Positions 21,421 to 25,969 of a DNA stretch of 32,000 nucleotides are shown one piece after another (within the stretch, counting starts at the first letter, position 1; each line of letters opens with the position of its first letter). Source of the stretch: Polynucleobacter sp. JS-Mosq-20-D10 (GTDB taxonomy: Bacteria; Pseudomonadota; Gammaproteobacteria; Burkholderiales; Burkholderiaceae); assembly GCF_018687755.1 (NCBI RefSeq), contig NZ_CP061305.1, forward strand, positions 1,539,551 through 1,571,550. Direction: 5' to 3'. The notes below the pieces were generated by a model, which was given only the letters and a program-made list of their open reading frames with translations, did no database searches and was not told the origin of the DNA. Position numbers and translations under genes: made by a program.

Positions 21421-22212
21421 TCAACCAATGATGCCCTTTAGGCCGGTATAAATAGACACAGCAGTGGTCCCAAGCGCAACAATAGTTCCACCGTATTCCT
21501 GTAACTTTTTCATCAGGCCATGCAAATTCGATGGCGAAATTTGCCCCTCACCCAGGCCTGTAACGACCGCTTTAAGAAAGGGATTGATTGATGCTTTTCG
21601 TAAATGTCTTTGTTTGCTCGCGTAAGCGACCCCACCGAGAAGCATCCCCGTTAAGAAACTAAAGGCGATACTTGCGGAATACTCCAAAACTTCCCGCCAT
21701 TCAAATATATTTTGAGGCCAAATTGGAGACCCATCCACTATAGAAGTCATCCAGCTCATACCAATGACAGAAGCAATAGCTAAAAATACTACCCCCATAA
21801 ACCAAGGAAATAATTTGCGAGTAGTACTTTTAAATAAGAAGTATCCAAAAGGTAAAGGCAGGATGATCGAGATCAATCTTAAGTACAGGGGCTTAGTGTC
21901 GTAAACAATTGAGATCAATCCATGTGCAGCCAGTAGGAGTGCGAGAGGAATGCCGATGTATATGACAATGTCCAATATGGATAAAGCAAGACCTCTTGGC
22001 TCAACCTGTTGTTGCACTTGTTCATCTAACAATAATTGCAATTCTGCAATACGATGCTCATAGGCATCTTGATTCGGAATCTCTTCAAGGCGCTTTTCAA
22101 GCTCCGCCATCTTAGCCATCATGGGCTTGAACAAATAAAGATCACGAGTACAGACCTTGCAGACCGATGCCTCTTCAGCAACTTCAGAGAGGCAGTATGG
22201 GCAATTCATCAT
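21421..22212 (-). CDS. Zinc-ribbon multipass membrane protein (unknown function), third gene of the CHAT module
   Basis: 263 aa. N-terminal C4-x2-C7-x10-C18-x2-C21 zinc ribbon, then a heptad-like segment (MAKMAELEKRLEE...IAELQLLLDEQVQQQ), then about 5 hydrophobic helices. The positive-inside rule suggests N-in, C-out. The ATG overlaps the stop of the upstream gene (ATGA at 22209-22212). Confidence 0.75.
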   Translation of the reverse strand: MMNCPYCLSEVAEEASVCKVCTRDLYLFKPMMAKMAELEKRLEEIPNQDAYEHRIAELQLLLDEQVQQQVEPRGLALSILDIVIYIGIPLALLLAAHGLISIVYDTKPLYLRLISIILPLPFGYFLFKSTTRKLFPWFMGVVFLAIASVIGMSWMTSIVDGSPIWPQNIFEWREVLEYSASIAFSFLTGMLLGGVAYASKQRHLRKASINPFLKAVVTGLGEGQISPSNLHGLMKKLQEYGGTIVALGTTAVSIYTGLKGIIG

Positions 22213-22649
22213 TTAACGACTAGAGTGAAAACAGTATTTGTTTCTCGACCATCAGTATCTTTCGCTGTCACGCGGATTGTGTGAGAGCCGGAAGGTACAT
22301 CTGCTTTTGAAAAATCAATACCAGATGCGCTAATAGAATTTTTTAATCTTGGCGTTAAATCCACAAAGGGGGATTTCATATAAACAACCTTGACTGAAGA
22401 TGGATCAATCTTGCCTTCACCGCGCGCTTCAAAGTTGACCTTGAAATCAAGTGGTGAGCTAACTGGAGCATCAGCCTCCGGAGAAACTAGCTTCACTGAT
22501 GGGCCTCGAGAAATCCCACGGGTAGCTAATGCTCCAGATGCCGCTGGCAAAGCAGCTTCTTTGGCGCTAATTAAAGGTGCCGCACTGACTAATGAGGTGG
22601 TAACCATGAGACTAGTAAAAAATAGGATTTGAGTAAGCTTCATCATCAT
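22209..22649 (-). CDS. Small secreted beta-rich (Ig / beta-sandwich-like) protein, second gene of the CHAT module
   Basis: 146 aa. Sec signal peptide MMMKLTQILFFTSLMVTTSLVSA/AP. An Ala/Gly/Ser/Pro-rich linker contains LATRGI. The remaining ~95 aa show alternating beta-strand-like patterns (VKLVSP, DFKVNFEA, VKVVYM, HTIRVTAKDTDGRETNTVFTLVV). The fold call is inferred from sequence pattern only. Confidence 0.7.
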   Translation of the reverse strand: MMMKLTQILFFTSLMVTTSLVSAAPLISAKEAALPAASGALATRGISRGPSVKLVSPEADAPVSSPLDFKVNFEARGEGKIDPSSVKVVYMKSPFVDLTPRLKNSISASGIDFSKADVPSGSHTIRVTAKDTDGRETNTVFTLVVK

Positions 22650-22691
22650 TCCAAAATAAGGGTTATTTAATTGCGATTAGTAGATATTAAA

Positions 22692-25600
22692 TCAATCACC
22701 AACCACTACAAACGGAGCCCAAAATAAGGGGTGCGCATAAGAGTATTTTATCGTGTTGCCCTCCCTCATCCCGCCTTGGTCGACTTGATTGAGCATTGCC
22801 TGACGAAGTAGCTCGGCTTTACTAGTATCTTGAGCTTTTTGCTGATTCTTAAATAGATCGGTCATCATGGTTCTAGATGCCGCAGAATCAACTGGCCAGT
22901 TAGAAACTAAGAGGGCTTTTGCACCGGCAAAGAAAAAGGCCCTACCTAAGCCTGAGACTGCTTCAGAACCAGCGCCATCTCCTGCCGCAGTATTACAAGC
23001 AGAGAGTACTACCCAGTCGGCATCGAGCTTTAAGGTCAGCACCTTATCCATGGTGAGTAGGCCATCATCTTTATCACCGGTGACTTCTGGAGAAGATAAA
23101 GCGAGCGCTGGCTGGGTTAAGCCATTAAGCTCACCTGGCACTAAACCATGGGTGGCAAACATCACCACCTTACGATTGGACAGATCAGTAGACATCACCT
23201 GCTTAACCGAAGCTTGTTTATGCAAGAAAATATCGCCATCTCCAGCACCAATGGCCTTACCAATTTCTTCTAACTCAAGACTGGTATCTGGCAAGCGGGG
23301 CAGTAATGCCAGCTCTGCTGAACTCACTCCAGAGGTCTTAGGCGCACTACGCAAAGACAGTGGAATACCTCTAGTAGCAAGTTGAGTAGCCTTTACTTGC
23401 TTTTGCGCAGACTTTTCTTGTTCACTACTAAAGTAAGGGTCGCCAAAACCAATAAAGTTTTTACGATTTGGGTTTCCAGCAGGTAAAGCACGTAAGGCTG
23501 TTAAAGCTGTAACAGACGGGATCTGGGCAACGGCAATATCCCGCGTTAACCAAGGAACAGTCTTATACCCACTAAACGGTGTGGCACCACCTTTGGCAGG
23601 TTGAGATGTTGGCTTGGTAACCAGTAAGGATAAGGGCAATTGGCCAAGTTCTGCATGTGGTACGGTCAACATTACCTTTTTGCCAATAAATGCACTCTGT
23701 ACTGGGGCAAGAACTTGTTGATAAAGTTGATTCGCTAACGCCACATCAAACGGCGGAATCTCATCGATCGTAGCAACGCCTGGATCTAAAGACTTACGTA
23801 GTTGCGTTACTGCTTTTGAAATTTGGGCACGGCCAACAGCAAGCTGAAAAAACTGTACCGGCTTATCTTTGCTAATTGCCCAAACATAACCCACGTTATC
23901 TGTGAAATACCATGAGACCAAAACTTCATCAGACTTTAACGCTTTTTGAGTTCGCTCTACAGAAGCTGGTTTTGGCTCAACTAACTCAGCATAGTCCGGA
24001 AACTTCTTCTCAATCTCTTTTTTCAAATCTTCACGCTGAGATTTAAAGGTGGTGATGTCAGCTCGAATCTTAGCTTGAGCGGCAGGGAGTTGTTGCGCAG
24101 GCGGGGCTGATAATAAACCAGTCAAGAGCTCCGTCAAAGTATTGATGCGTTGCTGCAAATCTTGTTCACGGCGAGCTAAAGACGCTAATTGCGGATCGGA
24201 AATAGTAGCGCGCGCTGCACTTGAAGTAAGGGCACGCTGTACACCGCTCCCACGTGCAAGATCAGCAATTTGGAAGGCTTCAGCAGCAGCCGCTCCCGAT
24301 GAATCTGTTTTTGCTTGCTGGGCAAGAGAGGCTAAATACTCCTCTAAAACAAAGATCATTCTTTGGGTTTGCCGTATTGTTGCGGTGGAATTTTCCGAAT
24401 CATTTCGCGCCTGATCAATCAGAATCGGAATAGATTGCTTGAACTCAGATAGCGCTTGAGAACCTTGTCCTGACACTTGAAGCGCAGATGCATTAAATGC
24501 TCTGATTGCCGCAAGACGTGGCGAGCTCTTTTCCATTCGAGCGCCCGCCTTGGAGAGCATATCTGCAGTCATTGTGACAGCCTGTGATGCTTTACCTGTT
24601 TTAACCAAAGCAATAGCCCAATCAAGATCGCCAGATTGATAACTAGAGGCAAGCTCAGGATCGCTCTTAATACCATCTACCATTTCATTGAACATCTTAT
24701 CTGCCTGTACATATTTACCATCTGCAGCTAATGATGTGCCTAAAGCTTTTCTTGCTGCCGCAATTAATGGAGATGCAGAATAATTTGTTGATTGTATTGC
24801 CACCTTGAGAGCTGCCTGAGATAACATTACCGCCTCAGCCTGACGCCCTTGCTCGCTAATAATTTTTGACAAGGTTAATAATGCAAAACAAGTGCTTGCA
24901 GAATTCACCCCCTCGCGATTAATCGCCAGTACAACCGACTCTCTCGCCCAATATTCAGCATCAATTAAACGTCGCTGACCTAGAAAAGCATTTGCTAGTT
25001 GGTTATATAAACCAACTCTTTGACCATAGGCATATCTAGGCGTACTAGAAATATCCTGCAATACTCTGACCTCATTATCTAAGGCATCCTTATTACTATC
25101 TTTGACGTTATCAAGAATTGTTTTATTTAAGCTCAGAGCAGTTCTGATACTCCTCTCAGCTTCAATAAATTTACCCTCCGACATAAATACTCTGCCACGA
25201 GCCCGCTCATAACCCAATTGCCAGTTGGTTTTATATATAAAGTTTGGATTTCTAGCTACGCTAATTAGATTAGAGTAATCATTTTCAAGGATGGCTAAGG
25301 CTTTATTGGCGCACTCAAAATCCCCTATACGTAAACATATATTGACAATAGTTTGTCCGGTACTAATCTTCCAGCCACCAAGATTATTGGGAATGATTGC
25401 TTTTGTTTCTTCAGCTATTTTTTTGGCAAGTACTAAGTTGCCCCTTAATGCCTCCTGTTGGGCATACTGCATTCTTTCATCTATCTGCATTGCAATATCG
25501 AAACTAGGATGATCAATTGCTGCCTTTTTAAAATTCTCTACAGCTTCTTTGGAGTTTTCTAAGATATTTTCAGCAACAGCACGCTGATAGTAGTAGTGAT

Positions 25601-25844
25601 TTAGAGCGCTAGAGTCATTCGACGATGGCGGAGATTTAGCTAGTATTTTTTTCGCCTTGTCTATCAACGCCTGATCCTGTCGAGTCTGACTCAATATCTG
25701 TAGAATGTCTTTCACATCTCTTGGCGGCGCCTTCATACTCTCAACGTCTACTTCATCTTTATTGGGAGCAGCAAATGAAGAATTCGACATTATCAATAAG
25801 CTGCAGCACAGCAATAGTGATTGAAGTAGCGAGAGCTTGCGCAT
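22692..25844 (-). CDS. Exported TPR-repeat / CHAT-domain (caspase-fold, clan CD) peptidase
   Basis: 1050 aa. Sec signal peptide MRKLSLLQSLLLCCSLLIMSNSSFA/AP. About 550 aa of TPR-like helical repeats come first, then a coiled-coil linker (REQDLQQRINTL...REDLKKEIEKKFPDYAELV). The C-terminal CHAT domain has His899 (MFATHG, codon 23148-23150) and Cys950 (VVLSACNTAAGD, codon 22995-22997) in canonical order and ends HPLFWAPFVVVGD. A GGGGA SD lies 6 nt upstream of the ATG. Confidence 0.85.
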   Translation of the reverse strand: MRKLSLLQSLLLCCSLLIMSNSSFAAPNKDEVDVESMKAPPRDVKDILQILSQTRQDQALIDKAKKILAKSPPSSNDSSALNHYYYQRAVAENILENSKEAVENFKKAAIDHPSFDIAMQIDERMQYAQQEALRGNLVLAKKIAEETKAIIPNNLGGWKISTGQTIVNICLRIGDFECANKALAILENDYSNLISVARNPNFIYKTNWQLGYERARGRVFMSEGKFIEAERSIRTALSLNKTILDNVKDSNKDALDNEVRVLQDISSTPRYAYGQRVGLYNQLANAFLGQRRLIDAEYWARESVVLAINREGVNSASTCFALLTLSKIISEQGRQAEAVMLSQAALKVAIQSTNYSASPLIAAARKALGTSLAADGKYVQADKMFNEMVDGIKSDPELASSYQSGDLDWAIALVKTGKASQAVTMTADMLSKAGARMEKSSPRLAAIRAFNASALQVSGQGSQALSEFKQSIPILIDQARNDSENSTATIRQTQRMIFVLEEYLASLAQQAKTDSSGAAAAEAFQIADLARGSGVQRALTSSAARATISDPQLASLARREQDLQQRINTLTELLTGLLSAPPAQQLPAAQAKIRADITTFKSQREDLKKEIEKKFPDYAELVEPKPASVERTQKALKSDEVLVSWYFTDNVGYVWAISKDKPVQFFQLAVGRAQISKAVTQLRKSLDPGVATIDEIPPFDVALANQLYQQVLAPVQSAFIGKKVMLTVPHAELGQLPLSLLVTKPTSQPAKGGATPFSGYKTVPWLTRDIAVAQIPSVTALTALRALPAGNPNRKNFIGFGDPYFSSEQEKSAQKQVKATQLATRGIPLSLRSAPKTSGVSSAELALLPRLPDTSLELEEIGKAIGAGDGDIFLHKQASVKQVMSTDLSNRKVVMFATHGLVPGELNGLTQPALALSSPEVTGDKDDGLLTMDKVLTLKLDADWVVLSACNTAAGDGAGSEAVSGLGRAFFFAGAKALLVSNWPVDSAASRTMMTDLFKNQQKAQDTSKAELLRQAMLNQVDQGGMREGNTIKYSYAHPLFWAPFVVVGD

Positions 25845-25908
25845 AGAAATTCCCCTATTTTTTATAAGGAATATACTAACTCAAAACTAGATATGCACTA
25901 GTCAATCA

Positions 25909-25928
25909 ACATAGGAGCACTCCTATGT
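25909..25928. promoter_or_regulatory. Perfect palindrome ACATAGGA-GCAC-TCCTATGT between hldD and the CHAT gene
   Basis: 8-bp arms with a 4-nt loop, 41 nt after the hldD stop and 64 nt before the CHAT ATG. On the minus strand it is followed directly by TTGATTGACT. It could be a weak hldD terminator (no clean U-tract) or an operator overlapping a -35-like TTGACT. Confidence 0.4.
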
Positions 25929-25969
25929 ATGCGGAAATCAGCTCCCAGGAATGGGTGCCGATCTATAAC

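Follow-up and report, generated by a model that had tools for sequence, protein, structure and literature searches.

Caspase-fold proteases and the locus under study

What is understood of bacterial caspase-fold proteases mainly concerns enzymes that trigger immunity from within the cytoplasm, for example in Craspase and in gasdermin activation. Here we analyse a three-gene locus in a 32,000-nucleotide stretch of the genome of Polynucleobacter sp. JS-Mosq-20-D10 (RefSeq assembly GCF_018687755.1, contig NZ_CP061305.1, positions 1,539,551 to 1,571,550; hereafter, the window). The locus encodes a caspase-fold protease with a tetratricopeptide repeat (TPR) scaffold, a CHAT domain and a predicted export signal (gene 1), a small protein that is also predicted to be exported (gene 2), and a multi-pass inner-membrane protein with an N-terminal zinc ribbon (gene 3). 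A previous interpretation of the same DNA, made without database searches (the sequence-only reading), took known CHAT enzymes to be cytoplasmic. That premise fails for DdvA of Myxococcus xanthus, whose TPR-CHAT domain is periplasmic (PMC11506125), and DdvA thus sets a precedent for the general design of an exported TPR-CHAT domain that works with a zinc module in the cytoplasm.

DdvA is a single-pass anti-sigma factor: a transmembrane (TM) helix connects its TPR-CHAT part, which lies in the periplasm, with a zinc-binding domain in the cytoplasm (PMC11506125). The cytoplasmic domain is a three-helix bundle with zinc bound to it, which traps the extracytoplasmic function (ECF) sigma factor DdvS, and self-cleavage by the CHAT domain has been proposed, but not demonstrated, as the site-1 step ahead of RseP (PMC11506125). 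The Polynucleobacter module resembles DdvA in having a TPR-CHAT protein with a helical scaffold and a His-Cys dyad, periplasmic by its predicted export, that is tied to a cytoplasmic zinc module, and in both cases the protease activity is a proposal. In DdvA, all parts are on one polypeptide that crosses the membrane once and has a zinc anti-sigma domain of the CHCC type, and the ECF sigma factor encoded next to it controls a CBASS/CRISPR island. The module instead consists of a free protease that is predicted to be exported and gives way to a Peptidase_C14 protein in some loci, a multi-pass partner with a C4 ribbon, and an obligatory, probably immunoglobulin (Ig)-like protein. Gene 1 is thus not fused by a single TM helix to a CHCC zinc domain: it is a separate gene, and the gene 3 product has at least four TM helices. 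No Sigma70_r2 or Sigma70_r4 gene was found among the neighbours in the window or in loci L001–L009 and L028 of the collection described below (loci L010–L026 were not scanned). To our knowledge, DdvA is the only periplasmic TPR-CHAT protein to have been studied, with no signal or substrate assigned to it so far.

Other caspase-fold systems are more distant. Craspase, in which the TPR-CHAT protein Csx29 is bound to Cas7-11 of type III-E CRISPR, shares its TPR-CHAT architecture with gene 1 and is among the top fold matches, but it is cytoplasmic, RNA-guided, and accompanied by cas genes and by the substrates Csx30/Csx31/RpoE, all of which are absent here, whereas gene 1 carries a signal peptide. 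We found no cas domains in the annotated loci, and the flanks in the window are hldD and comEA. Separase (family C50, clan CD), which is controlled by securin, also has a large helical scaffold ahead of a caspase-fold domain and gives the best fold match, but it is eukaryotic, intracellular, much larger, and without sequence similarity past the fold level. By analogy, gene 2 could plausibly act through a securin-type pseudo-substrate control. Orthocaspase- or metacaspase-like Peptidase_C14 proteins (with Sel1, TPR or DUF4384 regions) share the His-Cys caspase fold and replace the CHAT protein in five loci; however, the enzyme in the window is a CHAT and not a C14 protein, and the characterized orthocaspases are mostly cyanobacterial and not linked to partners of the gene 2–3 type. 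HetF of Anabaena, the founding CHAT protease, is membrane- and envelope-associated and differs from gene 1 in architecture and partners.

The sequence-only reading had also held that an exported TPR-CHAT enzyme linked to a membrane zinc-ribbon partner is not known to have a characterized function, and PADLOC, NCBIfam, Pfam and the searchable literature gave no characterized system that matches the trio. The only PADLOC 2.0 matches are local and marginal: BovA aligns with 59 residues of the CHAT core (E = 2.5e-4), and LmuB with the coiled coil (E = 2.6e-3). Genes 2 and 3 have no gasdermin match in Pfam or PADLOC, none of the three genes has an NCBIfam model, and a full-text literature search found no description of the module.

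Composition of the locus and its recurrence in other genomes

The features of the locus are as follows.

22692–25844, minus strand: gene 1, open reading frame (ORF) for a TPR-CHAT caspase-fold protease of 1050 amino acids (aa)
22650–22691, minus strand: spacer of 42 nt between genes 1 and 2, in which a scan found no terminator-like site
22209–22649, minus strand: gene 2, ORF for a small protein of 146 aa, predicted to be exported
22209–22212, minus strand: ATGA, in which the stop codon of gene 2 overlaps the start codon of gene 3
21421–22212, minus strand: gene 3, ORF for an inner-membrane protein of 263 aa
21320–21350 (approximate within a few bases), minus strand: terminator-like hairpin AUCCACUUGC...GUAUAGGUGGAU followed by UUUUUU, from RNA folding and sequence
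25845–25969, minus strand: intergenic region of 125 nt between hldD and gene 1, the probable promoter region

The three ORFs lie on the minus strand with the coordinates and lengths given in the sequence-only reading, and the 42-nt gap, the ATGA overlap, and the hairpin with its T-run after gene 3 are likewise present. The overlap supports the proposed translational coupling of genes 2 and 3. In RNA folding, the hairpin 3' of gene 3 has 10 bp and is followed by U6 (z = −2.7 versus shuffled sequences); a simple terminator scanner did not pick it up.

The decisive expectation of the sequence-only reading was that the three genes should co-occur in other genomes, and they do. Loci around gene 3 homologs were collected through exact-protein look-ups, a scan of GTDB species genomes with a six-sequence gene 3 alignment, and one annotated record, and were annotated with hidden Markov models built from our own alignments, together with Pfam checks. 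The resulting 27 independent loci come from Betaproteobacteria (Polynucleobacter, Roseateles, Variovorax, Azospira, Dechloromonas, Sulfuricella, Niveibacterium, Uliginosibacterium, other Rhodocyclaceae, and metagenome-assembled genomes [MAGs] of Burkholderiales), from one Bradyrhizobium, and from unassigned metagenome contigs. Genes 2 and 3 are adjacent in all 27 loci, and 25 of the pairs are spaced by −4 to +22 nt (5 nt in L028). A caspase-fold protease is encoded in 23 of the 27; among the four loci without one, L010 and L013 are truncated contigs. The Variovorax record annotates the three genes as "CHAT domain-containing protein", "hypothetical protein" and "zinc ribbon domain-containing protein".

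The proteases fall into three types.

13 loci: TPR-CHAT protein orthologous to gene 1, with 37–45 per cent full-length identity (including one pseudogene)
5 loci: CHAT protein with an unrelated N-terminal region, in which the CHAT domain alone can be aligned (about 25 per cent identity)
5 loci: TPR- or Sel1-containing Peptidase_C14 protein

In all types, the His and Cys motifs lie about 50 residues apart and the N-termini are signal-like. The protease gene is variously located upstream on the same strand, in divergent or convergent orientation, or about 3 kb downstream, and the genes around it show no relation from one genus to another. In proteobacterial genomes, caspase-fold genes are infrequent, and we roughly estimate that chance would put one no more than a few kilobases away from a given gene about 1 per cent of the time. 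Co-occurrence in 23 of 27 loci against such an expectation means that the association is functional, and we consider it very likely that these genes form a conserved, functional three-component envelope module. As a correction to the sequence-only reading, we regard the gene 2–3 pair, and not the protease, as the core of the module, because the pair is constant while the protease family is exchanged between CHAT and Peptidase_C14. The three protease architectures beside the same pair suggest that the functional link is to a periplasmic caspase-fold activity rather than to one particular protein.

Several observations were made on individual loci. The CHAT partners at L023:10738-13800 (Niveibacterium) and L025:11643-14705 (Uliginosibacterium) start with MKRRHLLQALGACALALAQAAIA, which looks like a Tat rather than a Sec signal and would mean export in a folded state. 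In Polynucleobacter necessarius, which has a 1.55-Mb genome, the gene 1 ortholog (L001:3839-6519, LT606950.1) is a pseudogene, broken into six ORF fragments over the TPR and CHAT regions. Three loci (L013, L019 and L020) come from records titled 'MAG: Bordetella parapertussis'; their module proteins are about 40–45 per cent identical to those of other loci, and the labels look unreliable. The gene directly after gene 3 encodes an alpha/beta-hydrolase in P. necessarius (L001:7779-8531; weak lipase/LCAT match) and one of the DUF900 type in Niveibacterium (L023:7880-9022) and Uliginosibacterium (L025:8787-9929). We rejected the hydrolase as a recurrent fourth component, as it was seen only in these loci, is of two non-homologous types, and is absent from the window. 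Small genes beside some of the CHAT genes (159 and 134 aa) were discarded as well, because they are not homologous to each other.

The TPR-CHAT protease

The gene 1 product is divided as follows.

Residues 1–25: signal peptide, MRKLSLLQSLLLCCSLLIMSNSSFA followed by A (predicted cleavage between ...IMSNSSFA and A)
About residues 44–530: helical/TPR scaffold, from AlphaFold and sub-threshold TPR matches
About residues 551–614: long helical hairpin, from AlphaFold
Residues 702–1050: CHAT domain (Pfam CHAT, PF12770) with His899 and Cys950

The assignment of the CHAT domain is supported by the Pfam profile, which residues 702–1050 match over positions 2–289 of 289 at 162.5 bits (E = 2e-47; the cut-off is 24 bits). 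The dyad residues are found in FATHG (His899) and LSACNT (Cys950), and both are invariant in 54 Polynucleobacter orthologs and also in six CHAT proteins with identity down to 20 per cent. The CHAT domain and the intact dyad described by the sequence-only reading are therefore confirmed by profile score and by invariance, respectively, and the N-termini of both gene 1 and gene 2 are signal-like, in agreement with the export that it had predicted for the two proteins. Several TPR matches were obtained in Pfam between residues 85 and 400, all of them sub-threshold, and AlphaFold models residues 44–635 as all-helical with a predicted local distance difference test (pLDDT) score of about 90.

A Foldseek search of the PDB with the gene 1 model placed human separase at the top (E = 9e-8) and also returned the TPR-CHAT protein of Craspase (1e-5; 7xsq_B, 7y84_C) and DdvA (4e-5; 8rw5), all with low template-modelling (TM) scores of 0.2–0.3. 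A PDB sequence search with gene 1 alone gave no match, and a search with its profile found TPRs of the kinesin-light-chain type only and no CHAT structure.

The gene 1 scaffold also finds the TPR superhelix of APPBP2 with its RxxGP degron (8jaq, 8jal; target TM-score about 0.5), and the gene 2 motif described below terminates in R-G-P. This likeness is probably a coincidence that arises from generic TPR geometry. In addition, a loop of gene 1 at residues 821–836 (QLATRGIPLSLRSAPK) resembles the TRGI motif of gene 2. The idea that this shared motif marks an autoprocessing site was abandoned, as the loop is kept in L003 and not in L006 or L007.

The small exported protein

Three regions are recognized in the gene 2 product.

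About residues 1–23: Sec-type signal peptide (predicted cleavage between ...TSLVSA and A)
Residues 26–50: conserved linear peptide L-I-x-x-K/E-E-A-x-L-P...T-R-G-I-S-R-G-P, from family conservation
About residues 55–146: predicted PKD/Ig-like beta-sandwich, from weak profile matches

In each of the 27 loci, the gene immediately upstream of gene 3 is a homolog (31–59 per cent identity), and residues L26, E31, A32, R44, Y90, D97, R101, P119, G121, H123, D131 and G134 are invariant. After the signal peptide, the homologs share L-[IV]-x-x-E-E-A-x-L-P, a stretch of five to eight residues, and R-[GA]-[IVL]-[TSG]-R-[GS]-[PA]. This Arg motif is found in every locus, including that of Bradyrhizobium and those with a C14 protease. 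Its narrower form R-[GA]-[IVL]-[TS]-R-G-P, in the probably exposed N-terminal part of the mature protein, is almost universal. The remainder of the protein is probably a PKD/Ig-like beta-sandwich, as suggested by consistent sub-threshold Pfam matches (Big_7, PKD and He_PIG, with E of about 0.01). The family also gives weak matches to DUF4625 (1e-3, in 2 of 11 members) and, as a profile, to the PKD domain of KIAA0319L (E = 0.004).

Orthocaspases are described as cleaving after basic residues (PMC6426788), and for this reason the Arg motif is a candidate cleavage or pseudo-substrate site.

Gene 2-like paralogs that have no adjacent gene 3 occur at L004:5939-6400, L009:7661-8125 and L005:9913-10368. 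Their neighbours are Peptidase_C14-DUF4384 and OmpA-like genes (L004 and L009), and a ShlB/POTRA transporter gene is nearby in L005; the Arg motif of the L004 paralog is degenerate. The paralogs beside C14 genes may belong to a second, related caspase-associated module. Because they accompany C14-DUF4384 proteins where gene 3 is missing, they suggest a direct relationship between the gene 2 family and the protease.

The zinc-ribbon membrane protein

The gene 3 product has the following predicted topology.

Residues 4–21: cytoplasmic C4 zinc ribbon, C4-x2-C7-x10-C18-x2-C21
Residues 28–69: two cytoplasmic helices/coiled coil, from AlphaFold
About residues 75–103, 108–128 (with a kink at the invariant Pro119), 134–160 and 169–198 (within a modelled helix that runs to 208): predicted TM helices, from AlphaFold
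After these helices: cytoplasmic basic segment, then a C-terminal hydrophobic helix (227–261) of lower confidence, from AlphaFold

The gene 3 family is large, with 630 clusters at 50 per cent identity (E ≤ 1e-3; 314 at E ≤ 1e-10), and nearly all members are full-length at about 255–270 aa. The gene 3 product of the window has 100 per cent identity to a protein recorded for Polynucleobacter sp. JS-Mosq-20-D10. Invariant positions are C4, C7, C18, C21, H97, D105, P119, M152 and P166. The four Cys residues are invariant in 26 diverse members and invariant or at least 90 per cent conserved in an alignment of 80 sequences. In searches with Pfam DZR, DZR_2 and Zn_ribbon_3, DZR_2 matched 22 of these 26 members and the best Zn_ribbon_3 match had E = 9e-6; the zinc-ribbon score of the gene 3 copy in the window is below the curated cut-off (15.8 bits versus 27). 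The AlphaFold model has a mean pLDDT of 85, rising to about 95 over the membrane core, with four confident TM helices and a fifth of lower confidence, and shows short strands and a zinc knuckle at residues 2–24. The combination of zinc ribbon, coiled coil and multiple TM helices proposed by the sequence-only reading thus stands. Basic residues concentrate in the loops at 128–133 and 199–214, and the positive-inside rule, applied to the modelled helices, places the N-terminal zinc ribbon in the cytoplasm.

In the same model, His97, Asp105, Asp160, Pro166, Trp172 and Glu174 would lie at the periplasmic face. The invariant His97, Asp105, Met152 and Asp160, together with the near-invariant Gly151, Ser153 and Glu174, are at the predicted periplasmic ends of TM helices, and this cluster could bind a metal or a ligand, or could even contain a catalytic Ser/His pair. 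The membrane domain has no Pfam family and no fold match in the PDB (best Foldseek E = 1.4), and a PDB search with the gene 3 profile returned coiled-coil noise only. The absence of a fold match argues against a rhomboid-like or other solved membrane fold. We also rejected the label RseC/MucC ("positive regulator of sigma E"), which matched one of the 26 members with E = 0.014.

Proposed mechanism and alternative explanations

We infer that the protease acts in the periplasm on or through the Ig-like gene 2 protein, docked on the zinc-ribbon membrane protein, and that a signal is thereby passed across the membrane; we hold this reading tentatively, as one that is nearly evenly balanced. In such a mechanism, the TPR or Sel1 helical scaffold of the protease would recognize a ligand or a partner, and the protease would cleave, or be restrained by, the gene 2 protein on gene 3. 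The peptide R-G-[IV]-[ST]-R-G-P of gene 2 would serve as the cleavage, pseudo-substrate or docking site. Such an event would then alter the state of gene 3, whose zinc-ribbon/coiled-coil end would relay the change to a cytoplasmic partner. The module would in this case be analogous to DdvA in design, but split and multi-pass.

Several observations weigh against signalling by the protease through the pair. Export of genes 1 and 2 is predicted from typical Sec signals, that is, from the N-terminal sequences only. The CHAT part of gene 1 was modelled by AlphaFold with pLDDT of 25–55, from an alignment of close Polynucleobacter orthologs only, and its motif-like loop at 821–836 is not conserved across all orthologs. 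No cytoplasmic output partner for gene 3 was identified. Two loci with adequate flanks (L005 and L016) have no protease within about 7 kb. In P. necessarius, genes 2 and 3 are intact directly downstream of the protease pseudogene, and the two may therefore have some function that does not involve the protease; this suggests that a reduced genome can dispense with the protease and may still need the pair. Finally, the gene 2 motif is kept whatever the protease type, and a docking peptide for gene 3 therefore fits it equally well.

Under a quieter explanation, the module would process envelope proteins or control their quality without any signalling, with genes 2 and 3 anchoring, positioning or inhibiting the protease in a securin-like manner and the zinc ribbon serving assembly or stability. 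We consider this unlikely, though it is the best of the alternatives: orthologs of genes 1 and 3 are spread across many Polynucleobacter species, the module occupies the same housekeeping site in P. necessarius (the one other Polynucleobacter context examined), it was not found on phages or true plasmids, the C14 versions are accompanied by OmpA-like peptidoglycan-binding genes, and no transcription or sigma factor is consistently adjacent in the Pfam-annotated loci. However, the cytoplasmic side of gene 3, with its conserved zinc ribbon and coiled coil, is hard to reconcile with a pure anchor, and outside Polynucleobacter the neighbours are not consistently envelope-related. The same distribution bears on a defence or cell-death switch, one of the options of the sequence-only reading, in which phage or envelope damage would lead the protease to cut gene 2 or 3 and gene 3 would disrupt the membrane, as a periplasmic counterpart of gasdermin. 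Caspase-fold proteases do trigger the Craspase and gasdermin systems, the protease modules are exchangeable, their genomic position differs among genera, the protease has been lost in an endosymbiont, and individual loci are near a reverse transcriptase (L008), barnase/barstar (L006), a transposase (L005) or an integrase (L028). Yet neither PADLOC nor the phage and plasmid searches gave support: there is no meaningful PADLOC match, no gasdermin or toxin domain and no phage match, and the sole match in the plasmid collection is a 2.5-Mb Variovorax chromid. The wide presence of orthologs in Polynucleobacter, the synteny with P. necessarius at a housekeeping site, and the fact that most neighbourhoods consist of housekeeping genes (for example, nadA, glnA, aspS and dnaE) also speak against it, and we judge such a switch improbable.

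Far less probable still is a DdvA-like anti-sigma system split in parts, in which gene 3 would hold an ECF sigma factor via its zinc domain until site-1 cleavage by the CHAT protease, and then RseP, set it free. Such a system would parallel the TPR-CHAT part in the periplasm and the cytoplasmic zinc-binding domain of DdvA, which is among the fold matches of gene 1. But gene 3 has a C4 zinc ribbon and not a CHCC-type three-helix anti-sigma domain, it is multi-pass and not single-pass, an ECF sigma gene is adjacent in no Pfam-annotated locus and not in the annotated Variovorax record, and the weak RseC_MucC match is confined to a single one of the 26 family members. Chance adjacency of unrelated genes, or mis-called ORFs, can be dismissed: all three genes have hundreds of conserved homologs, and the arrangement recurs across genera in differing contexts.

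Returning to trans-membrane signalling by a periplasmic protease, a more specific form, which we term the transducer reading, has a substantial chance but is less likely than not. The gene 2–3 pair could represent an undescribed class of envelope-to-cytoplasm transducers, into which several caspase-fold families plug and in which cleavage at the gene 2 motif switches gene 3. The module, whose nearest known kind is that of protease-based trans-envelope modules with DdvA the closest, would then be a distinct pathway. The invariant His/Asp/Asp/Glu residues that face the periplasm in the gene 3 model, and its G-M-S motif, also mean that gene 3 may itself be catalytic or ion-conducting.

Genomic setting

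The trio is placed between hldD and comEA, flanked by lapB-ugd-hldA-hldD and by comEA-cysM; the identities of these flanking genes were confirmed via the syntenic, Pfam-annotated locus of P. necessarius. The setting between lipopolysaccharide (LPS)-core genes and comEA-cysM, which the sequence-only reading had noted, holds within Polynucleobacter and is not conserved in other genera. A functional tie to the LPS-core genes was rejected on the same grounds, as the adjacency is not conserved outside Polynucleobacter. The base composition of the three-gene block is unremarkable. A promoter scan found no sigma-70 consensus site in the 125-nt region between hldD and gene 1. The region contains a perfect 20-nt palindrome, ACATAGGAGTGCTCCTATGT (minus strand, about 25909–25928), that is not followed by a T-run and could be an operator or a structure at the end of the hldD transcript.

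Significance

If the transducer reading is true, the module would constitute a bacterial extracytoplasmic caspase signalling pathway without a characterized counterpart. Gene 2 offers a candidate substrate or partner with a sharply defined peptide motif, and gene 3 a dedicated membrane partner whose membrane domain has no counterpart in Pfam or among solved folds. The exchange of CHAT and C14 proteases against constant partners amounts to a natural experiment. The module is widespread, judging by the size of the gene 3 family, and among its carriers outside Polynucleobacter, Azospira oryzae DSM 21223, Variovorax paradoxus VAI-C and the Bradyrhizobium isolate may be easier hosts in which to study it. 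Extracytoplasmic caspase-like proteolysis in Gram-negative bacteria is thereby open to direct testing, and the locus provides a good lead on proteolytic signalling in the bacterial envelope.

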